This document shows positions 759 through 10,985 of a DNA stretch of 64,000 bases, one piece after another. Source of the stretch: an uncultured Acidobacteriota bacterium (lineage in GTDB: Bacteria > Acidobacteriota > Thermoanaerobaculia > UBA5066); NCBI GenBank assembly GCA_963836285.1, contig CAWIIN010000002.1, positions 1,650,386 to 1,714,385 of the forward strand, written 5' to 3'. A model generated the notes under the pieces. It was not told the DNA's origin. It made no database searches and saw only the letters and a program-made list of their open reading frames with translations. The position numbers and the translations under genes were made by a program. Position 1 is the stretch's first letter, and the number at the start of each line of letters is the position of its first letter.

Positions 759-1508
759 GTGAAGGGGAGGCGAATTCGGCACGGACGGGCGGCACTGGGC
801 GCGTTCGCCCTCCTCGCCGCGACCGCGTGCCGGCCGCCGGTCGATCCGATGGAAAAGAAACGCACGCAGATGGTGGAAACCCAGATCGAGGGGCGCGGGA
901 TCCGCGACCCGCGCGTCCTCGCGGCGATGCGCAAGGTCCCGCGACACCTCTTCGTCCCGGCCGCCGAGGCGGCCGCCGCCTATGACGACCGCCCGCTGCC
1001 GATCGGAAGCGGCCAGACGATCTCGCAGCCCTACGTCGTCGCCTTCATGACCGAGCAGCTCCGTCTCACGGGGACGGAGAGGGTCCTCGAGATCGGCACG
1101 GGCTCGGGCTACCAGACGGCGATCCTCGCCGAGCTCGCCGCGAAGGTTTACTCGATCGAGATCCGTCCCGAGCTCGCGGCGTCGGCCGCGGAGCGACTGC
1201 AGCAGCTCGGGATCCGCAACGTCGAGGTGCGCGCCGCCGACGGTTACCGCGGGTGGCCCGCGGAGGCGCCGTTCGACGGCATCCTCGTGACGGCGGCGCC
1301 GGAGCGCATCCCGCCGCCTCTCCTCGAGCAGCTCTCGGCGACCGGGAGGATGGTGATCCCGGTCGGCGCCTTCTATCAGGAGCTGAAAGTGATCGAAAGA
1401 CAGGGCGGGGGATACACGGAGAAGAGTGTCCTCCCCGTGAGGTTCGTGCCGTTCGTCGGCGAGGCCGAGGGCGCGCCGCGGGTGCCGGAGCCCGGAACGG
1501 GCCGCTGA
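759..1508 (+). CDS. pcm: Protein-L-isoaspartate O-methyltransferase
   Basis: 249 aa with PCMT hallmarks (HLFVP, LEIGTGSGYQTA SAM motif, TISQPY). Confidence 0.9.
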   Translation: MKGRRIRHGRAALGAFALLAATACRPPVDPMEKKRTQMVETQIEGRGIRDPRVLAAMRKVPRHLFVPAAEAAAAYDDRPLPIGSGQTISQPYVVAFMTEQLRLTGTERVLEIGTGSGYQTAILAELAAKVYSIEIRPELAASAAERLQQLGIRNVEVRAADGYRGWPAEAPFDGILVTAAPERIPPPLLEQLSATGRMVIPVGAFYQELKVIERQGGGYTEKSVLPVRFVPFVGEAEGAPRVPEPGTGR

Positions 1509-2384
1509 TGCGAGCCCTGCGGCGCGCGCTGGCGGCGGCGCTCGCCGCCTCGGTCCTCGCCTCCGCGCCGGCGCGCGCCGCCGACGCCGCCGCCCGCCGC
1601 GAACCCGCCGCCGGCCTTCTCTTTCGATGAGGCGGGCGCGCTCGCCGCAGGCGACGCGAAAGGCGTCCTCCTCGCGCCGCTCCGCTGGGACGGGAACGAC
1701 TGGCTGAAGTTCGGCGGTGCCGCCGTCGCCATCACCGCGACGGGATTCCTTCTCGACAACTGGCTCCGGGACGCGTCGCAGCGCAGCCGGACGCCGTCGC
1801 GCGACGAAGCGGCCGTCACGATCGAGAAGCTCGGCGCCGAGTACTCGTTCGCCGTCCTCGGCGGGTTCGCGGTCGTCGGACTCGCCGCGAAGAACCGCGA
1901 GGCGATGGACGTCGCGGTCGACGGCCTCCTCTCGAGCGTGATCGCCGCGGGCGTCGTCGCCCCGGTCTCGAAATTCGCCGTGGGCCGCGCGCGTCCGAAC
2001 GCGGACGAGGGATCCGCCTCATTCCAGCCGTTCTCGTCGAACGCGTCCTTCCCGTCCGGACACACGACGCAGGCCTTCGCGGTCGCGTCCGTCGTCGCGG
2101 CGCACGATCGTCACCTGTGGGTCCGCGTCGTCTCGTACGGCCTCGCGGGCTCCGTCGGCCTCGCGCGCATTCACGAGGACGCGCACTGGACCTCGGACGT
2201 CCTCGCGGGCGCGATCCTCGGAACGGTCGTCGGAAACGCCGTCGTGAAGGTGAACGACGGGATCCGGGCGGGCCGGAGAGCTCCGGACGGCCCTCGCGCG
2301 GGAAGAGCACCCGGCGCGACTCTGGCGCTGTGGCCCGTTTTTCTTCGAAAGGGAGGCGGGCTGTCGGTCGTCGCGTCGTTCTAG
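1508..2384 (+). CDS. PAP2-family phosphatase with apparent frameshift near 1575-1625
   Basis: The ATG at 1508 overlaps the pcm stop (ATGA) and opens a signal peptide (MRALRRALAAALAASVLASAPARA) in frame 2 that terminates at 1630. The PAP2 core (SGHT, RIHEDAHWTSDV) continues in frame 0 from about 1610 to 2384, and frame 0 has no start codon. One indel in the GC-rich run is implied. Confidence 0.5.
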
Positions 2385-2427
2385 GCGGTGTCTGGCGTAC
2401 GTCCCCGGGCTTTCGTAGGATCCCGCC

Positions 2428-2724
2428 GTGGCCTCCGACTCCGAACCACTCGAAGGGATCCAGATTGCCTCTCACCGCGTGGAGCGCGTCGCGGCGCGGG
2501 CCCGCGACGTCTCCCACACGTTTTCGGCGTGGGCGCTCGTCGTCGAAGCGGCGCAGGGGACAGGACGCATCGTGCGCATCGAGGTGACGCCGGACGCCAC
2601 CTTGTGGCGCGGCGACGGCGTCTTCCTCGGCTGGACGACCGATCGGCTCGCGGCGGCCTGGGACGCCCTGCGCGCGGCCGAGCCCGTGCCCGAGGCCAGC
2701 CCGGACTTTCCCCAGCTCGGCTAG
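2428..2724 (+). CDS. Hypothetical small protein
   Basis: 98-aa ORF with protein-like composition, converging on the DUF190 gene. No recognisable domain. Confidence 0.3.
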   Translation: MASDSEPLEGIQIASHRVERVAARARDVSHTFSAWALVVEAAQGTGRIVRIEVTPDATLWRGDGVFLGWTTDRLAAAWDALRAAEPVPEASPDFPQLG

Positions 2725-3074
2725 GCCCTCTTCTTCGGCGCCCAGCGGAGGATCTCGACCTTCTCCATGGTCATGAGGACGCCGCACGCGGCCTCCTCGA
2801 GGATCGGATCGATCCGCTCGAGGAAAGCGCGGACCTTCTCCTCGGTGTCCACGATCTCGACGACGATCGGCAGGTCCTCCGACAGCTCGAGGAGCCGCGC
2901 GCGGTGCACGACGCTGGACGCGCCGAAGGACTCGATGCCCCGGAGGACCGTGGCGCCCGACAGTCCGGCCTCGCGTGCCTCGCCGACGAGGACCTCGAAG
3001 AGCGGCTTGTGCCGCGCGCGGTCCGTCTCGCCGATGTGGATCCGGAGCAGCTTCGCCGACGCGACGTCCTTCAT
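2721..3074 (-). CDS. DUF190 / PII-like protein associated with CrcB fluoride channels
   Basis: Last 117 codons of the 2721..4310 ORF (MKDVASAKLLRIHIGE...). Its start overlaps the crcB stop (ATGA). DUF190 is a known CrcB-associated family. Confidence 0.75.
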   Translation of the reverse strand: MKDVASAKLLRIHIGETDRARHKPLFEVLVGEAREAGLSGATVLRGIESFGASSVVHRARLLELSEDLPIVVEIVDTEEKVRAFLERIDPILEEAACGVLMTMEKVEILRWAPKKRA

Positions 3075-3454
3075 GAGGCGAGCCTCCCGATCGAGCGGCC
3101 GAGCACCGTTCCGAGGAGCCCGAGGAAGACGGAGCCGCCGACGTAGAGCGTCGCGCGAAGAACGTCCTTCACGGTGAGAAGGCCGAGCGTGTCCCACGCG
3201 AAAGACGAGAACGTCGTGAAGCCGCCCAGAATCCCGACCATGAGAAACGTGCGCGCCTCGGGCGAGATGGCCGCGCGCTCGAGCCCGAGCGCGCCGACGA
3301 GGCCGATCGCGAAGCACCCGGCGAGGTTCACGGAGAAGGTGCCCACGGGAAACGGCCCCGGCGCCGTGCGCTGCAGGGCGGAGGCCATCGCGTACCGGCA
3401 CACCGAGCCGATCCCGCCGCCGACGAACACGAGCGCGAAGAAGAACGGCCGCAT
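3071..3454 (-). CDS. crcB: Fluoride ion exporter CrcB/FluC
   Basis: 127 aa, four TM segments, GGFTTFSSF motif characteristic of CrcB. Confidence 0.9.
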   Translation of the reverse strand: MRPFFFALVFVGGGIGSVCRYAMASALQRTAPGPFPVGTFSVNLAGCFAIGLVGALGLERAAISPEARTFLMVGILGGFTTFSSFAWDTLGLLTVKDVLRATLYVGGSVFLGLLGTVLGRSIGRLAS

Positions 3455-3505
3455 CCGCGCGGGACGTTATCAGACGGGGGCGGCCGGCTCGCCGTATGAT
3501 CGCGG

Positions 3506-3562
3506 GAGCGACGGCGATGGAGTCCGCCCGAACCGCCCGGCGAGGGCTGATGACTCCTACCC
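3506..3562 (+). promoter_or_regulatory. Fluoride riboswitch (crcB RNA motif) on plus strand
   Basis: GGCGAUGGAGUCCGCCCGAACCGCCCGGCGAGGGCUGAUGACUCCUACC matches the conserved fluoride aptamer almost base for base (compare Thermotoga GGGCGAUGAGGCCCGCCCAAACUGCCCUGAAAAGGGCUGAUGGCCUCUAC). Its orientation is toward the downstream GTPase gene, not toward crcB. Confidence 0.8.
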
Positions 3563-3581
3563 TCCCCCGGGAGGAGCCGCC
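3559..3581 (+). promoter_or_regulatory. Putative expression-platform hairpin sequestering the Shine-Dalgarno (CCUCCCCCGGGAGGAG) before a TTG start
   Basis: CCTCCC..GGGAGG inverted repeat overlaps the 3' end of the aptamer (CUCCUAC) and contains GGAGG 6-8 nt upstream of TTG at 3582. Confidence 0.45.
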
Positions 3582-5312
3582 TTGTCCGACGACACGAGCC
3601 AGCCTCCAGACGGATCCATCGCGCCGGCCGGCGCGGATCTGGGCGATCTCGCCGCGCTCGCCCGGGAGATCGGAGCCGCCGGCGTCGCCGACGACGCCGA
3701 GGCCGTGGCGCGTCGGGTCGCGGAAGGACGCTTCTACGTCGCGTGCGTCGGCCAGTTCAAGCGCGGTAAATCCACGCTCCTGAACGCGCTCGTCGGCCGC
3801 CCCCTCCTGCCGGTCGGCGTCCTGCCCGTCACGTCCGTCCCGACCGTCCTTCGCTTCGGGGACAGGCTGCGCGCCCGGGTTCTCCTTTCCGGGGGAGAGT
3901 GGCGGGACGTCGACCCCTCTTGCCTGGGCGCGTGGGTCACGGAGGAGAGGAACCCGGGGAACACGCGCGGCGTCGTGGCCGTAGAGGTCTTCGTGCCGAG
4001 CCCGCTGCTCGCCGGCGGGCTGTGCCTCGTCGATACGCCCGGCGTCGGCTCGATCCGGGCCGGAAACACGGCGGCCACGCGCGCGCTCGTCCCCCACGTC
4101 GATGCGGCCGTGGTCGTGCTCGGAGCGGACCCGCCGATCTCCGGAGAGGAGATGGCGCTCGTCGAGGAGATCGCGGCGCACGTCGAGACGCTCGTGTTCG
4201 TCCTCAACAAGGCCGACCGGCTGCCCGCGGGCGACTGCGCCGAAGCCGCGCGCTTCGCCGAGGCGGCACTCACGGGGCGGCTTGGAACGCGCGCGTCCCC
4301 GCTCCTTCACCTGAGCGCGTCGGAAGCGCTTGCGGGGAGCCCGACCCGGGACTGGGAGAGGCTCGAGCGGTCGCTCTCTCTCATGGCCCGGACCTCGGGC
4401 GCGGACCTCGTGAGGATGGCCGGGCGGCGCGCCGCCTCACGGCTCGCCGCCCGGCTTCTCGGGGTGCTCGACGAGCGGCGCGACGCGCTCGTGCGCCCGA
4501 TTGCGGAATCCGAAGGACGGATTGCGGCCCTCGGCGAATCCGTCGCGGCCGCCGAACGCTCGATGGCGGATCTTGGATTTCTTCTGAACGGGGAGGTCGA
4601 AAGGCTCGCCAGGAGATTCGCCGAGCATCGGGACGAATTTCTCGCCGGGGCTGCGGGACCCGCCCGGGAGGAGCTTCGAAAGCAGATCGACGCGCCCCTG
4701 GCCGACTCCGGTGCCGCGCTCCGGGATCGCGCGTCGAACGCGGCGATCGCCATCGCGCGGCGACACCTCGACGCCTGGCTCGCCGACGCGATTCCCGTCG
4801 CCGAGGCGCTCTATCGCGCAACGGCCGAGCGCTTCCTGGCGCTCGGCGACGAGTTTCTTGGGCGCTTTCTCGCGTCGGAAATGGTCGGTCCCGACCGGCT
4901 GCCCCCGGGGCTCGGCCACGAGGCGGGGTTCCGGGCGAAATCAGGGCTCTTCTACACGGAGCTCCTCGCGGTCGCCGAGCCGTCCGTGATCTCCTGGCTC
5001 GCCGACCGCATGCGCCCGGTCGCCGCGACCCGGCGCGCCGTGGCGCGCGACGCGGCGGCCTACCTCGACAGGCTCCTCGCGACGAACAGCGCCCGCGCCC
5101 AGAACGACCTCGTCGAGAGGGTACGGGAGAGCCGGCGCCTCCTCGAGGCCGAGATCCGCGCGCGGCTCGTGGAGGCGCTCCGCTCCGCGACGGGCGCGCT
5201 GGAACGGGCGCGGGCGCGGAGGGCCGAAGGGGACGCGAGCGTGGCCGCCGAGCTGGAGCGGCTTCGGGAGTGGGAGAGCCGTGCGCGACGAGGCTACGGG
5301 CCCGCGCGGTAG
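3582..5312 (+). CDS. Bacterial dynamin-like GTPase (start reassigned to TTG 3582 after the riboswitch)
   Basis: Dynamin-family G1 GQFKRGKSTLLNAL, G3 DTPG and G4 NKAD motifs, plus a long helical C-terminus. The N-terminal 136 codons of ORF 3174..5312 are antisense to crcB and were discarded. Confidence 0.75.
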   Translation: MSDDTSQPPDGSIAPAGADLGDLAALAREIGAAGVADDAEAVARRVAEGRFYVACVGQFKRGKSTLLNALVGRPLLPVGVLPVTSVPTVLRFGDRLRARVLLSGGEWRDVDPSCLGAWVTEERNPGNTRGVVAVEVFVPSPLLAGGLCLVDTPGVGSIRAGNTAATRALVPHVDAAVVVLGADPPISGEEMALVEEIAAHVETLVFVLNKADRLPAGDCAEAARFAEAALTGRLGTRASPLLHLSASEALAGSPTRDWERLERSLSLMARTSGADLVRMAGRRAASRLAARLLGVLDERRDALVRPIAESEGRIAALGESVAAAERSMADLGFLLNGEVERLARRFAEHRDEFLAGAAGPAREELRKQIDAPLADSGAALRDRASNAAIAIARRHLDAWLADAIPVAEALYRATAERFLALGDEFLGRFLASEMVGPDRLPPGLGHEAGFRAKSGLFYTELLAVAEPSVISWLADRMRPVAATRRAVARDAAAYLDRLLATNSARAQNDLVERVRESRRLLEAEIRARLVEALRSATGALERARARRAEGDASVAAELERLREWESRARRGYGPAR

Positions 5313-5318
5313 GTCTGG

Positions 5319-6125
5319 CTAGATCCCTGCCCAGCCGGGCTCGAGGCGCGTCCAGCCCTCCTCGACCGCCCAGAGGTCCATCGCGAGAGAGGCGAGATCG
5401 TCCACCTCGGGAACGGGGCGCGCGTCGAGCGTGAGATCGAGGGATTTCACGTAGCTCCGGCACGTCTCGCAGGCCTCGATCCGCACGGCCGGATGCGCCT
5501 CCGTCCGGAAGTTCGGCAGCTTCGCGGGGTCCTCTTCATGGCATGCGGCGCAACGGATGCGCGCGAACGGCCACTCGGTGCCGCAGAGCGCGCAGGCCAG
5601 CGAGCGCGCGGCCCCGCCCGAGTCCGCGACCTCGCGCCGGACGCTCACGACGGCTCCGTTCCCGCAGGCGGGACAGTGGCCCGGGTGGCGCGGGCGCTCG
5701 AGCGTGACGCCCTGTGAGGCGAGGACCTCGGCGTAGGGCCGCAGGAAGGCGCGCGACAGGTAGTCCTCCCGGGCTTCGCGCTCTCCGCTCCAGTAGACCG
5801 CGAGGCGCGAAAGAGCCGTCTCGTCCGCGTCGGCGTGGCGCGCGGCGGCCGCCTCGGCCAGTTCCGGCGGCCCCTTCTCGGAGGCGTAGGTCAGGAGCGG
5901 CGCGAGGAGGTCGAGGAGGCGCGGGAAGTCGGCGCTCGCCCCCGTGAACGCGACGTCCTCGTGGCGGGCGAGGACGGCCGCCGCGAGCCGCCCCTGGAGC
6001 CGGAAGAGGCCCGACGCGAACGCGAGAGGCTCGGCGACGAGGGGAGCCGAGGCGAGCAGGGTCGTCGCGCGCGCCGCGCGCTTCTCGAACGCCACGGCCG
6101 GATCGAGCGTCGCGTGCACCTCCAC
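5319..6125 (-). CDS. fdhE: Formate dehydrogenase accessory protein FdhE
   Basis: Four CxxC pairs in FdhE arrangement (CPACG, CALCGTEW, CAACHEE, CETCRSY). Located downstream of fdnGHI. Confidence 0.85.
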   Translation of the reverse strand: MEVHATLDPAVAFEKRAARATTLLASAPLVAEPLAFASGLFRLQGRLAAAVLARHEDVAFTGASADFPRLLDLLAPLLTYASEKGPPELAEAAAARHADADETALSRLAVYWSGEREAREDYLSRAFLRPYAEVLASQGVTLERPRHPGHCPACGNGAVVSVRREVADSGGAARSLACALCGTEWPFARIRCAACHEEDPAKLPNFRTEAHPAVRIEACETCRSYVKSLDLTLDARPVPEVDDLASLAMDLWAVEEGWTRLEPGWAGI

Positions 6126-6295
6126 ACGTTATCGCCGGAGCGCCCGAAAGGGAAACCTCTCGACCGGGGCCATCTCGTCGGGCGCGCGTTCGACCTCGAG
6201 AAGACGTCGCCTGGTCGACCTGAGCCCGGGCCGTCGCAAGAGGAAACGGGGGCGCCGGAGCGCCCCCGCGGACGGACCCTCCTGTCGGAGAGGGC

Positions 6296-6988
6296 TTACT
6301 TGTCGAGCCCCATGATCTCCCGGTACCACTTCGGATGGTGGAGCCGAGCCCACGCCTTCGTGACGGTGCCCCGGGTCATCGAGCCGAACGTCCCGGGCTC
6401 GGCCGCGGTGCCGAGGTAGACGTGGAAGACGATCGTGACGGCGAACAGGATGAACGTCACGTCGTGAAGGATGATCGCGATCTCGCGGACGACGTGCGAG
6501 AAGTTGAGCGGGAACCAGAGGACGACGCCCGACGCGAGGAGGCCGAGCGCCGCGAGCGCCGACGTGAAGAAGAAAATCTTCTGGCCTCCGTTGTACTTGC
6601 CGACGTTCGAGTCGTCTGTCTGGTAGCGCATGTACGTGAACAGCTTCGGGCCGATCCAGCTCCTCTCGTCGGGCCTGAGCTCCATCTCGGAGAACCACGC
6701 GACGAGCATCACGAGGGTCGCGAGCGAGAACGCGATGCCCGCCCAGGGATGCAGCCAGCGGCAGACCTGGAGTCCCCCGAAGAGCGGGGCCATCCAGGTG
6801 AAGACCGGCGTCCAGATCGGCAGGCCGGTGAACAGACAGACGATGAACGTGACGGCGACGCACCAGTGGATGACGCGCGAGGAGAGACGGTGGCGGATGA
6901 TTTCGTTCCCGACGACGACGTTCTCGCGGTCGCGGGCCACGACGACCGCTTCGTCCATCGCCCGGTCGCGGATCGGGGCAGCGCTCAT
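6296..6988 (-). CDS. fdnI: Formate dehydrogenase-N gamma subunit (cytochrome b556)
   Basis: 230 aa, four TM helices, conserved His ligands, RHRLSSRVIHW N-terminus typical of FdnI/FdoI. Confidence 0.85.
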   Translation of the reverse strand: MSAAPIRDRAMDEAVVVARDRENVVVGNEIIRHRLSSRVIHWCVAVTFIVCLFTGLPIWTPVFTWMAPLFGGLQVCRWLHPWAGIAFSLATLVMLVAWFSEMELRPDERSWIGPKLFTYMRYQTDDSNVGKYNGGQKIFFFTSALAALGLLASGVVLWFPLNFSHVVREIAIILHDVTFILFAVTIVFHVYLGTAAEPGTFGSMTRGTVTKAWARLHHPKWYREIMGLDK

Positions 6989-7012
6989 GTTGCCTCCTCT
7001 TCTCTCTTCCGC

Positions 7013-7909
7013 TCAGGCCTGCGGCAGGTTGGATTCGGAGTCCGCCGCGCCCTTCACTTCCTTCTTTCCGAAGTTCAGGTAGTGCCCGAAGGCGCCGACG
7101 ACGGCCCCGACGATGGCGACGAGTCCGAGGGGACGGACGACGTTCTTCCAGAACTTCATTCCGATCGGGACGTGCGGATCGCGGGGCAGGCCGCCGTACC
7201 ACTCGGGATGGTCCCCGTGCGCGAGCACGGTGACGACGGTCGTGCCGCTCACGCCCTTCGGGTCGTAGAGCGCGGCGTTCGCGAAGCCGTTCGCCTTGAG
7301 CTGCTCGACGCGATGGTTGCCGAGCGCGACCATGTCGTCCTTCGTCCCGAAGTGGAGGCAGCCGGTCGGGCAGGCCTTGATGCACGCGGGCTCGAGGCCC
7401 ACGGAAACCCGGTCCACGCACAGCGTGCACTTCGCCATCTTCCCCGTAGCGGCGTGGAACTTCGGGACGTCGAACGGACAGCCGGTCGCGCAGTAGCCGC
7501 AGCCGATGCACTGCTCCGGATTCACGTCCACGATGCCATTCGAGTACTGCACGATCGCGCCGGGAGCGGGACACGCCTCGAGGCATCCGGGCTCGGCGCA
7601 GTGCATGCACTGGTCCTTGCGCATGAGCCACATGAGCCCGCCCTCGACCTCACGCTCGTCGAAGCGGATGAGGTTCCAGAAGGACGGGTCGAGCGTCGGC
7701 ATCGTCTGATACGTGCCGGTCTGCGACGTCGGGACGACCCTGAGGTCGTTCCATTCCTGGCAGGCGACCTCGCACGCCTTGCAGCCGATGCAGGTCGACG
7801 TGTCGATGTACTTGGAGACGGTCGGAAGGCTGCGCAGGCCGCTCGCGTTTCCGGACGAGAGGATGCCGGAGGCGGAGGAGCGGGCGATCTCGAGGTTCTG
7901 TACGCTCAT
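7013..7909 (-). CDS. fdnH: Formate dehydrogenase-N beta subunit (4x[4Fe-4S], C-terminal TM anchor)
   Basis: Multiple CxxCxxCxxxC ferredoxin motifs (CIGCKACEVAC, CMHCAEPGC, CIGCGYCATGC, CTLC) and a C-terminal TM helix. Confidence 0.9.
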   Translation of the reverse strand: MSVQNLEIARSSASGILSSGNASGLRSLPTVSKYIDTSTCIGCKACEVACQEWNDLRVVPTSQTGTYQTMPTLDPSFWNLIRFDEREVEGGLMWLMRKDQCMHCAEPGCLEACPAPGAIVQYSNGIVDVNPEQCIGCGYCATGCPFDVPKFHAATGKMAKCTLCVDRVSVGLEPACIKACPTGCLHFGTKDDMVALGNHRVEQLKANGFANAALYDPKGVSGTTVVTVLAHGDHPEWYGGLPRDPHVPIGMKFWKNVVRPLGLVAIVGAVVGAFGHYLNFGKKEVKGAADSESNLPQA

Positions 7910-7922
7910 CGTCGTCCTCCTC

Positions 7923-10900
7923 TCAGGCCTTCTCGAGCTTGACGAGGAACGTCTTGTACTCGGGCGTGAACGTGTTCGGGTCCATCGCCGAAGGCGTCAG
8001 GAAGTTCGCGAGCGGGCCCGTGTGGCCCGCCTCGCCCTCGTAGCCCCAGTGGAGCGGGAATCCGATCTGCCACATCGCCTGGCCGTTGATCTGGAGCGGG
8101 AGCAGGCGTTTCGTGACCATCGCGACTCCCTCGATGGAGCCGCGCGCCGACGTGACGCGCGCCTTCCCGCCGTTCGTGATGCCTTTCTCCTTCGCGAGAG
8201 CCTCCGGGATCTCGATGAAGAAGCCCGGCTGCACCTGGTTCAGGCGGCCGATGTGCTTCGTCCAGTAGTGGTAGTGCTCCGTGAGGCGGTACGTCGCGCA
8301 GACGATCGGGAACTGGTCGCGGGTGCCGTAGACGTCCTTGTCGGACTTGAACTTCTTCGTCGCGGGGTTCGACGTCACCTTCGGGTGGAGCGGGTTGTCG
8401 CACGGGGCCTCGACGGCCTCGTAGTGCTCCGGGAAGGGCCCGTCGTTCAGCGGGGCGAAGATCTTGCCGACGCCCTCGGGCAGCATGATGAAAGCGCCGA
8501 ACGTCCCCGGGGGCGCGTCCGGCTTCATGTCCGGGACGTCGCCGACCCATTTCGTGCCGTTCCACTTGATGCCGGCCCGCGTCGGATCCCAGGGCTTGCC
8601 CTCCGCGTCGGCGGACGCGCGGTTGTACATGACGCGCCGGTTCGCCGGCCAGGAGAAGCACCAGTTGTGGTACATGCCGAGGCCGTTCGGGTCGTCGACG
8701 GGATTGCGCCTCTGCGTCAGGTTGCCCGCCTCCGTGTAGCAGCCCGACATCAGCCAGTTGCCGCACATCGTCGACCCGTCGTCCTGGAGCTGGCCGAACC
8801 CGTCGAGCTGCTGGCCGGCCGTCTTGATGACCTTCGTCTTGTCCTTCGGGTCGTGGATGTCCTCGAGGGCCTTGCCGTTCAGCTCCCTGAGGACTTCGGA
8901 CAGGTCGGGCGCCGCCGGGTTCGTGTAGGACCAGTCGACGTTCAGCACCGCTTCCGCGGCGGGGCCGCCCTCCTTGCGGTAGAGGTCCCTCACGGCGAGG
9001 AAGATCCGGGCGAGGATCTCCTGGTCCGTCTTGATCTGCCCCGGAGGATCGAGGGCCTTCCACTTCCACTGGATCCAGCGCGCCGAGTTCGTGAAGCTGC
9101 CGTCCTTCTCGGCGAAGTTCGACGCGGGGAGCTGGAACACCTCGGTCTGGATCTTCGAGGGGTCCGCGCCGCCGTACTCCTTGGGCGCCTTCCAGAACGT
9201 CGCCGTCTCGACCTGGTGGTTCTCGACGACGACGAGCCACTTCAGCTTCGAGTGGGCGGCGATCATCTTCGGCGTGTTCGGCCCGATGCCGACCGGGTTC
9301 ATGCCGAACGTCATGAGGCCCTCGGGGCCCGGCTCCTGTCCGCCGGCGCGGCTCGAGTTGCCGCGGTACATGTCGTCGAAGATGAACATCCAGGAGTAGT
9401 TGCCGTCGACCTTCGGGAGCCAGTTGTATCCGAACTCGTTCTCCTTCGTGGCGCTCTTGCCGTAGCAGGCCTTCAGGACCGAGACCATGAACTTCGAGTA
9501 GTTCTGCCAGTAGTTCATGGACGGGCCGAGCGCCTTCGGGGTGTTCGCCTCGTTGTATTCCTTGAGCGACTGCCATTGGGCCTGCGGGGTCTTGACGTAT
9601 CCGGGCAGGATGTCGAAGACGCCCGCGGTGTCCGTGGCGCCCTGGATGTTCGAGTGGCCGCGCAGGGCGTTGACGCCGCCGCCCGGCCGGCCGACGTTTC
9701 CGAGCAGGAGCTGCAGCATCGCGGCCGTCCGGATGATCTGGACGCCGATCGAGTGCTGCGTCCAGCCGAGCGCGTACATGATCGTGCCCACGCGCGGGGC
9801 GTTGCCCGTCGACGTCACGACCTCGGCGACCTTCAGGAACGTGTCCTTCGGCGTGCCGCAGATCTTCTCGACCATCTCCGGCGTGTAGCGGTCGACGTGC
9901 TTTTTCAGCAGCTGGAAGACGCAGTGGGGGTCCTCGAGGCTCGGGTCCTTCTTCGCCTCCCCCTTCGCGTCGAGCTGGTAGGCCCACGTGTCGCGCTTGT
10001 AGCTGCCCGTCGCCTCGTCGAACCCGGAGAAGAGCCCGTCGTCGAACTTGAAGTCCGGGTTAATGAGGAGGGGCGCGTTCGTATGGATCTTGACGTAGTC
10101 CTCGTGGAACCGCTTCTTGTCGATCGCGTACCGGATGATGCCGAGGAGGTACGCGATGTCCGTGCCCATGCGAATCGGGGAGTAGACGTCCGCGACGGCC
10201 GCGGTCCGCGTGAAGCGCGGGTCCACGGCGACGATCTTCGCGTTACGGGTCTTCTTCGCCTCGATCGCCCACTTGAAGCCGCAGGGGTGGTTCTCGGCGG
10301 GGTTCCCGCCCATGCAGAGGACGACGTCGGCGTTCTTGATGTCGACCCATCCGTTCGTCATCGCTCCGCGCCCGAACGTGGCGGCCAGACTGGCCACCGT
10401 GGGCCCGTGTCATACCCGGGCTTGGGTGTCCCGGTACGGAACGCCCCAAGCGGAGGCGCTCTTCCAGTAGAGGTAGTTGAACTCCGTCGTGTCCGTGCAC
10501 CCGCCGATCATCGCCATGCCGGGGTTGCGGTTGACGACCTGCCCCTTCGCGTTCTTCTGCACGAAGCTCTTGTCGCGCGTGTCCTTGACGTGCCGGGCGA
10601 TCTTCGAGATCGCCTCGTCCCACGAGATGTCCTCCCAGTGGTCCGAGCCGGCCTTGCGGATCTGCGGCGTCTTGAGGCGCGTCGGGCTGTTGATGTCGTC
10701 CTTGACGGTCGCGCCCTTCGGACAGAGCGTCCCGCGATTGATCGGATGATCGGGATCGCCCTCGACGTGGACGACCGACGCGGTCGCGTTCTTGGCCTTG
10801 TCCCCGAGCGTATGGATGATCAGACCGCACGAAACGGCGCAGTAGGGACATGTGCTGCGCGTTTCCGTGGTGCGCGAGATCTTGAATTCGCGCATTTCGG

Positions 10901-10985
10901 CCCGGGCCTCGCGCATGTCGAAGCCCAGGGCGACAGCTCCGCCCGCCGTCCCTGCTTTGAGGAAGGTTCTTCGCGTCAGGCCCAT
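7923..10985 (-). CDS. fdnG: Formate dehydrogenase-N alpha subunit, selenocysteine-containing (in-frame UGA near 10410), Tat signal
   Basis: ORFs 10410..10985 and 7923..10397 are contiguous in one frame across a TGA. The flanking sequence ...RDTQARV-U-HGPTVASLAATFGRGAMTNGW matches the E. coli FdnG Sec196 context. The N-terminus has a twin-arginine signal (RRTFLK) and a CPYCAVSCG Fe-S motif. Confidence 0.9.
10355..10410 (-). promoter_or_regulatory. Putative SECIS element downstream of the fdnG UGA codon
   Basis: GC-rich inverted repeats (GGGCCCACGGUGGCC, GGCCAGUCUGGCC) begin about 4-10 nt 3' of the UGA, where bacterial SECIS hairpins sit. The fold was not computed. Confidence 0.4.

Follow-up and report, generated by a model that had tools for sequence, protein, structure and literature searches.

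Fluoride riboswitches of the crcB motif are known to target genes for the fluoride exporter, enolase, pyrophosphatase, an antiporter and MutS-like proteins. The standard logic of translational ON control in this class is the masking of the Shine–Dalgarno (SD) sequence by the 3′ strand of the pseudoknot. The element described here resides in a stretch of 64,000 nucleotides, referred to as the window, from an uncultured bacterium of the Acidobacteriota (Thermoanaerobaculia; contig CAWIIN010000002.1). It shares with known translational ON members the P1 and P3 helices, the pseudoknot, a same-strand position in the 5′ leader of its target, and an anti-SD provided by the 3′ strand. The target differs from those known, being the gene of a bacterial dynamin-like GTPase, and the platform differs in carrying a mismatch and a second anti-SD. 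From sequence and comparative evidence, it is likely that a functional fluoride riboswitch governs the translation of this GTPase. The RNA itself is an ordinary member of a well-known riboswitch class and is mechanistically nothing new; it is the target that is new.

Known fluoride operons combine crcB or eriC-F with genes for DUF190 proteins, a Na+/H+ antiporter, Usp, enolase, pyrophosphatase and MutS-related proteins. The same genes occur in the riboswitch-headed operons of the relatives of the window, but these operons add one or two dynamin-like GTPases, an AAA_16 ATPase and a Cys-rich protein. The lineage of the window departs from known fluoride operons in a further respect, as its crcB and DUF190 genes lie on the opposite strand.

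Among the described dynamin-like systems, Campylobacter jejuni DLP1/DLP2, Nostoc BDLP, Bacillus DynA and Escherichia coli LeoABC share with the window protein a Dynamin_N GTPase domain followed by a helical neck or trunk. Relatives of the window hold two paralogs in one operon, in the manner of DLP1/DLP2 or the fused DynA, whereas the window has one. The best structural match is mycobacterial IniA of the iniBAC operon (6J72, E=1.9e-20 over ~600 aligned columns), at ~20% sequence identity. Both proteins are dynamin-like with expression tied to chemical stress, through a predicted riboswitch in the present case. IniA is induced by drugs acting on the cell envelope via protein regulators, whereas the inducer of the window GTPase would be fluoride, acting via an RNA switch.

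Aptamer and expression platform

The elements of the leader and its gene are as follows, with P1, P3 and the pseudoknot read from the sequence.

3504..3566, plus strand: fluoride riboswitch aptamer (RF01734)
GGCG 3513-3516 / CGCC 3525-3528, plus strand: P1
GCCC 3535-3538 / GGGC 3544-3547, plus strand: P3
GGAGU 3519-3523 / ACUCC 3553-3557, plus strand: pseudoknot joining the P1 loop to the 3′ tail
3554..3576, plus strand: switch (anti-SD:SD) helix, the pseudoknot 3′ strand CUCCUACC (3554-3561) with GGGAGGAG (3569-3576)
3569..3576, plus strand: SD sequence GGGAGGAG, 5 nt before the start codon and aligned with GGUAGGAG of the relatives
3582..5312, plus strand: bacterial dynamin-like GTPase gene (“DLP2”), 576 amino acids, TTG start, from the translation and a Dynamin_N match of 82.3 bits
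3495..3500, plus strand: −10-like hexamer TATGAT, candidate promoter of the riboswitch–GTPase transcript, 12 nt upstream of P1

The initial annotation had placed a near-consensus fluoride aptamer on the plus strand, about 20 nt before the TTG start of the GTPase. The Rfam model RF01734 matches this site over its full length (model positions 1-64) with 57.7 bits and an E-value of 2.2e-13, against a gathering score of 34 bits, and all of its invariant positions are present. Measured from the end of this match, the distance to TTG 3582 is 15 nt, so the earlier estimate was fair. A covariance model scoring the minus strand more highly had been named as one outcome that would overturn the assignment. 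A rescan of both strands with Rfam at E<=10 returned no fluoride match on the minus strand between 3300 and 3800. A separate covariance model, built from 12 related aptamers and run unfiltered over all 64 kb, gave the window site 69.4 bits as the sole site, with the next best at 8 bits. This model found no second aptamer in the 64 kb, such as one serving crcB.

The structural elements are conserved well beyond this locus. Among 73 related aptamers, P1, P3 and the pseudoknot are kept, with 97% of cells paired and 76 doubly changed. The double changes fall in six of the 12 pairs; none of 500 shuffles equalled the observed score, and slid controls collapsed.

The expression platform was examined in an alignment of ten direct leaders, in which the aptamer lies immediately upstream of the GTPase gene. 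All ten have an invariant GAUGACUCCUACC tail, an unrelated loop of 3-22 nt, the sequence GGUAGGAG(U), and a start codon 4-7 nt further on. The RNAalifold consensus consists of P1, P3 and an 8-bp helix of CUCCUACC with GGUAGGAG, kept in 10/10 leaders. In the four relatives folded individually (L001, L002, L003 and L065), minimum-free-energy folding gives this switch hairpin, with energies of −16.2 to −20.3 kcal/mol. CUCC(U) also serves as the pseudoknot 3′ strand, so that masking of the SD and binding of the ligand would be mutually exclusive.

The SD had previously been described as embedded in a CCUCCC/GGGAGG hairpin. Written in this way, the hairpin leaves an unfeasible loop of 2 nt. The loop in the window does hold a second anti-SD, CCUCC 3561-3565, which can form a 5-bp CCUCC/GGAGG hairpin with a 4-nt loop at −8.0 kcal/mol. 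On sequence grounds, the SD-masking helix that matters is the one predicted to use the aptamer’s own pseudoknot strand, and not only this local hairpin.

A transcription-terminator platform was considered and rejected, as no terminator with a U-tract comes after the aptamer. Between 3000 and 4000, a single terminator-like site was found (3462-3449, minus strand); it spans the start of crcB and matches chance level (one found versus 0.4 expected). The plain minimum-free-energy fold of 3504-3620 was uninformative (z-score 0.19), with the pseudoknot strands mis-paired; constrained folds and comparative analysis were used in its place.

A hexamer of the form TAnnnT stands ~9-15 nt before P1 in 8/10 related leaders, as TATAGT (three times), TAAACT, TATACT, TATATT and TATAAT. 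Together with TATGAT in the window, this is consistent with a start of the riboswitch–GTPase transcript a few nucleotides before P1.

These observations can be assembled into the following scheme. Nucleotides 3504-3581 would constitute the 5′ leader of a monocistronic GTPase mRNA with a translational ON fluoride riboswitch. When fluoride is absent, the free 3′ strand would pair with the SD along the switch helix and block initiation at TTG 3582. When Mg2+ and fluoride are bound, the 3′ strand would be captured in the pseudoknot with GGAGU 3519-3523 and the long helix barred. This would leave the ribosome site more accessible. The crcB–DUF190 genes would be transcribed in the opposite direction from their own promoter, outside the control of the aptamer. 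The analysis establishes the aptamer with its strand and position, the identity of the downstream protein as a dynamin-like GTPase, and the conservation among relatives of both the aptamer–GTPase linkage and the anti-SD helix; fluoride induction in vivo, the promoter positions and the physiological role of the GTPase are inferences.

The dynamin-like GTPase and its conserved linkage to the riboswitch

The window protein is a bacterial dynamin-like protein by both sequence and fold, as first annotated. The Pfam family Dynamin_N matches with 82.3 bits against a cut-off of 27, and the GTPase motifs G1 (GQFKRGKS), G2 (T84), G3 (DTPG) and G4 (NKAD) are present. Across 20 homologs, every position of G1-G4 is invariant except N209 of G4, which is kept in at least 90%. 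Profile searches of the PDB matched Cj-DLP2 (5OWV_C, 9e-24), Nostoc BDLP (2J68, 1e-23) and IniA (6J72, 1.1e-19). The AlphaFold2 model (mean predicted local distance difference test score 81.9) has a GTPase domain followed by very long helices at residues 258-369, 377-431 and 480-570. Foldseek aligned this model with the PDB over its whole length, with probability 1.00, to IniA (1.9e-20), BDLP (1.8e-18) and Cj-DLP1/2 (~1e-14). The TM-scores of these alignments are low, at 0.3-0.4, which may be attributed to different hinge states. The putative membrane-binding tip of the trunk, residues 432-468, is a loop modelled with low confidence that includes a conserved amphipathic sequence, GFRxxSxLFYTELLAVA; no transmembrane segment was found in this region by a Kyte–Doolittle scan.

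Scores against the NCBIfam equivalogs are far below their cut-offs (DynA NF052648, 39.6 bits vs 1600; CrfC NF007368, 25.2 vs 1146), and the window GTPase is therefore not an ortholog of DynA or CrfC. An anti-phage LeoABC reading was also rejected, given PADLOC scores of 40 bits for LeoA and 21 bits for LeoBC and the fluoride-gene context.

TTG 3582 is the sole start codon near the SD, and the closest relative, L082, has an identical start (TTG-TCC-GAC-GAC). The public gene call for the L082 dynamin runs from 4001 to 5326 (441 amino acids) and begins ~420 nt past the aptamer at 3517-3579. This short call reflects either a mis-called start or an assembly frameshift. The window gene is monocistronic, as a convergent gene lies 6 nt past its stop codon:

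5319-6125, minus strand: fdhE (FdhE), convergent on the GTPase gene

The initial annotation had asked whether other genomes pair this riboswitch with dynamin-like genes. The GTPase family has 3768 matches at E<=1e-5 among the metagenomic candidates scored. From contigs representing one genome per species, 80 GTPase loci were fetched and scanned together with the 64-kb window, 810 kb in all, and their genes were labelled by homology to seed proteins. Greedy calling of the longest open reading frames (ORFs) was dropped, having produced antisense ORFs in the high-GC loci and families lumped by single linkage. At E<0.01, the covariance model built here gave 72 aptamer matches in the 810 kb, all but the window’s own lying in the loci, and Rfam confirmed 11 aptamers in the first 15 loci. 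The 80 loci divide as follows.

15 loci: same-strand aptamer upstream of the GTPase gene, 21-837 nt away and with no recognised gene intervening
34 loci: co-directional operon that holds the GTPase gene and is headed by an aptamer
24 loci: co-directional fluoride-type operon running off the 5′ edge of the fetched DNA
7 loci: without an upstream same-strand aptamer

In five further relatives of 54-81% identity, fetched by exact protein look-up, the aptamer ends ~13 nt before the start codon. The total with a same-strand upstream aptamer is therefore 54/85 loci, or 54 of the 61 that could be judged, with 20 direct and 34 at operon heads. The metagenome-assembled genomes (MAGs) of these loci carry labels that include Thermoanaerobaculia, Terriglobia/Acidobacteriaceae, Ca. 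Binatia, Ca. Methylomirabilia, Verrucomicrobiia and Myxococcales/“delta proteobacteria”. The pairing thus recurs in dozens of genomes of soil bacteria.

The commonest operon of the Acidobacteriaceae begins with the riboswitch, a second dynamin paralog (600-700 amino acids, Dynamin_N 87 bits) and CrcB. It continues with a Cys-rich protein, a tandem-double DUF190 protein, a single DUF190 protein and the ortholog of the window GTPase, with an AAA_16 ATPase immediately before or after the latter. Other genes that share these operons or stand behind neighbouring aptamers encode Na_H_Exchanger, Usp, MutS_V, enolase, pyrophosphatase, an NADHdh-like protein and a cyclopropane-fatty-acid synthase. The first five of these belong to the classical fluoride regulon (PMC11139923, PMC2864571). 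As the operons carry genes of the classical regulon, the dynamin is embedded in fluoride-response islands.

Several of the accompanying genes were noted in their own right. The Cys-rich protein (~205-230 amino acids) has no Pfam or PADLOC match and contains Cys pairs of the CPxC, CxFH, CxxC and CxxH-like types. Its gene lies between crcB and DUF190, overlapping the end of crcB, in ~30 labelled Acidobacteriaceae operons. The AAA_16-type ATPase (~250-280 amino acids, 41 bits) almost always adjoins the dynamin gene and sometimes has its own aptamer. A stand-alone protein of ~170 amino acids, also without a Pfam match, shows homology to the N-terminal part of the larger dynamin paralog that precedes the GTPase domain. 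Some operons carry it in place of this paralog, for example in the order Nha, Usp, ~170-aa protein, DLP2. Examples of these three are:

L031 2181-2795 and L007 2132-2824: Cys-rich protein
L025 3102-3935, L005 8636-9382 and L036 3165-3983: AAA_16-type ATPase
L005 1861-2376, L013 1483-1962 and L028 3380-3853: ~170-aa protein

The DUF190 proteins give a weak P-II match and have PDB relatives in 2DCL and 1O51. In L031, a tandem-double DUF190 gene (2811-3542, 243 amino acids) is followed by a single one (3539-3892, 117 amino acids), making three domains per operon. This trio may constitute a pseudo-trimeric P-II-like module.

Cyclopropane-fatty-acid synthase (CMAS) is, to our knowledge, not a listed member of the fluoride regulon. 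In L043, its gene (5949-7109) stands directly behind an aptamer (5810-5876), and elsewhere it is found next to the riboswitch–dynamin gene:

L051 1560-2369, L081 6220-7161, L082 5669-6529 and L084 9381-9749: CMAS

Aptamers also cluster in “fluoride islands”, where two to four lie within 9.6 kb, some as back-to-back divergent pairs (L058, L069, L043, L041, L027 and L061). The four aptamers of L058 lie at 959-1026 (minus), 1190-1265 (plus), 2539-2609 (plus) and 8370-8439 (minus). Overall, 74 aptamers were counted in 648 kb of dynamin-centred DNA. In L083, the riboswitch–dynamin unit follows, on the same strand (935-3854), PhoU_div and two PHO4 phosphate-transporter genes. A connection of phosphate homeostasis with fluoride resistance has been reported, and this arrangement may reflect it.

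Possible role of the GTPase and predicted depth of its regulation

The best guess for the function of the GTPase, drawn by analogy, is that it maintains or remodels the cytoplasmic membrane in fluoride stress linked to hydrogen fluoride and acid, acting in most lineages with its paralog and the AAA ATPase. That it actively protects the membrane as part of fluoride tolerance is put forward tentatively, at somewhat less than even odds.

The strongest alternative accepts the same regulation and takes the GTPase to be a fluoride-sensitive enzyme, of which an over-produced or tolerant copy would offset inhibition, with no membrane repair involved. GDP-AlF4- and BeF3- trap the G domains of the dynamin family, and metal fluorides mimic the gamma-phosphate or the transition state. 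Papers on “bacterial dynamin” that refer to fluoride contain only reagent mentions, in a trapping-type context. Enolase and pyrophosphatase, classical fluoride-inhibited enzymes, share operons with the dynamin or sit behind neighbouring aptamers, and a review presents the up-regulation of both as a presumed compensation for their inhibition (PMC11139923). The dynamin family is, however, tightly tied to crcB and DUF190 and accompanied by a paralog, the AAA_16 ATPase and the Cys-rich protein, an assembly that looks machine-like. Dynamin-like proteins are also usually dispensable stress proteins rather than housekeeping enzymes, and the presence of cyclopropane-fatty-acid synthase behind aptamers of these loci suggests that the site of action is the membrane. 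The inhibited-enzyme explanation is accordingly regarded as rather unlikely, with perhaps one chance in four. A stress-induced dynamin akin to IniA or DynA is favoured over it, though not strongly, because of the dedicated partners, the tight link to CrcB and the riboswitch-controlled cyclopropane-fatty-acid synthase.

A second alternative is that the aptamer of the window is intact but its expression platform has drifted, so that the GTPase is weakly or not at all regulated by fluoride. Several results for the window count against effective control and against the proposed role. In the switch helix CUCCU(A)CC(C)/GGGAGGAG, G3571 takes the place of the U that would pair with A3559, leaving an A3559 x G3571 mismatch, and the helix has a calculated energy of −12.2 kcal/mol, compared with −16 to −20 for the relatives. 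In silico folding with a locked aptamer still predicts a paired SD, either with CCUCC 3561-3565 or with a coding CCUCC near 3604, and positions 3570-3574 have an unpaired probability of <=0.05. The predicted contrast between the ON and OFF states is therefore smaller than in relatives, and fluoride regulation in the window may be shallower, which is the chief reservation about the window itself. Neither a partner dynamin paralog nor an AAA ATPase was found in the 64 kb, and the membrane role draws on analogy. A consensus sigma-70 scan found 0 promoters, so the statements made on promoters rest on the conserved TAnnnT hexamers.

Against a drifted platform stands the gap of ~4 kcal/mol between the two masking hairpins, which can still regulate. 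L081 is likewise mismatched at the same pair (A x C), and thermodynamic folding ignores tertiary and kinetic effects. The core of the window aptamer is perfectly conserved, and this speaks for continuing selection. A drifted, weakly responsive platform is judged improbable and well behind riboswitch control of GTPase translation, which is retained as the likely arrangement.

The divergent crcB operon and the reach of the fluoride response

The intergenic region is shared with the crcB and DUF190 genes:

3071..3454, minus strand: crcB (Fluc fluoride channel; CRCB 94.9 bits vs 32.9, TIGR00494 93.1 vs 80.45)
2721..3074, minus strand: DUF190 gene (COG1993, P-II-like; 118.6 bits, from the translation)
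3464..3475, minus strand: conserved motif, ACGTTATCAGAC on the plus and GTCTGATAACGT on the minus strand, a possible extended −10 element (TGnTAACGT) for crcB, 9 nt upstream of the crcB ATG

The DUF190 gene overlaps the crcB stop codon, forming a crcB–DUF190 operon. As this operon lies on the minus strand and diverges from the GTPase gene, it is not subject to cis control by the window aptamer, in agreement with the earlier annotation. The crcB ATG and P1 are no more than about 50-58 nt apart, and the two promoters must therefore be back to back or overlapping.

Relatives with the same divergent crcB–DUF190 layout (L001, L002, L081, L082 and L085) carry no minus-strand aptamer, and no crcB-side aptamer was found in L081, L082, L084 and L085, with L084 having a divergent Nha-crcB-DUF190 arrangement. 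In the window and in L001, L002 and L081-L085, the aptamer stays with the dynamin gene in every locus. In most relatives, crcB and the dynamin gene lie in one riboswitch-controlled operon; the divergent crcB is therefore peculiar to the lineage of the window among the sampled loci. The divergence does not make crcB and the dynamin functionally unrelated. Any order of origin assigned to the divergent and the operonic arrangement would be inferential.

The aptamer region could govern crcB indirectly, through promoter interference or an antisense effect, making crcB fluoride-responsive after all. The short distance between the two transcription units favours this. We know of no fluoride-riboswitch mechanism acting on the opposite strand. 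The sequence ACGTTAnCAGAC, which is GTCTGnTAACGT on the crcB strand, stands at a fixed 7-10 nt before the crcB start in L081, L082, L001 and L085, with a variant in L002, whereas the distance from the TGnTAACGT motif to the riboswitch −10-like box varies from 13 to 23 nt. This difference in spacing suggests an independent crcB promoter, and GTCTGnTAACGT looks like the extended −10 box of an almost leaderless crcB mRNA. Such a promoter would fit independent, perhaps constitutive, expression of crcB, and the window copy is presumably constitutive or differently regulated. It has also been reported that only ~15% of Fluc genes are riboswitch-controlled (PMC11139923). Indirect control of crcB is thus considered very improbable.

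That the aptamer match is a chance or decayed sequence without function is negligibly probable, given its E-value, its intact invariant positions, the same element before orthologs at 54-81% protein identity and the compensatory changes in the helices of related aptamers.

The only other Rfam match in the 64 kb is a SECIS_3 element at 10357-10415 on the minus strand, at 63.3 bits against a gathering score of 63. It starts at an in-frame TGA joining the minus-strand ORFs 10410-10985 and 7923-10397. The joined frame suggests an alpha subunit of formate dehydrogenase with selenocysteine, ~1000 amino acids long. FdhE is encoded nearby. No fluoride aptamer stands upstream of this putative gene in the window.

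The initial annotation had also held that a link between fluoride and a dynamin was undescribed. Full-text literature searches, which did not extend to the gene-association tables of Baker et al. 2012, returned no paper on such a link and nothing relevant on fluoride riboswitches in Acidobacteria. Dynamins do not appear among the crcB-motif genes in the 2010 discovery paper and the first 200 of the 438 files of its supplement, nor in the 2020 Breaker-lab review. No literature mention of dynamins, the AAA_16 ATPase or the Cys-rich protein in fluoride operons was found. The link is provisionally taken as undescribed before. What is new is the conserved dynamin target, along with a dynamin module of several genes inside fluoride operons.

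What bacterial dynamin-like proteins do physiologically is poorly defined, and the inducing signal is known for few of them. A riboswitch points to such a signal with unusual directness, because the gene behind it is made when cytoplasmic fluoride rises. The linkage and the recurring partner genes make the function of these dynamins experimentally tractable through a testable inducer, fluoride. A possibility held with caution is that, in many soil bacteria, among them Acidobacteriota and the MAGs with the labels Binatia, Methylomirabilia, Verrucomicrobiia and Myxococcales, a fluoride-inducible dynamin machine stands beside export as a second line of defence and protects or remodels the cytoplasmic membrane under hydrogen fluoride and acid stress. 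Its parts, proposed with the same reserve, would be one or two dynamin-like GTPases, usually an AAA_16 ATPase, the DUF190 proteins and the Cys-rich protein.

These findings suggest that bacteria respond to fluoride partly through a membrane-remodelling protein that has been overlooked, with relevance to fluoride and organofluorine biology in acidic soils. The membrane would join exporters, ion homeostasis and fluoride-inhibited enzymes within the scope of the fluoride regulon. If this is true, bacterial dynamins gain a defined natural inducer and a physiological role, and the membrane becomes a target of the fluoride response.

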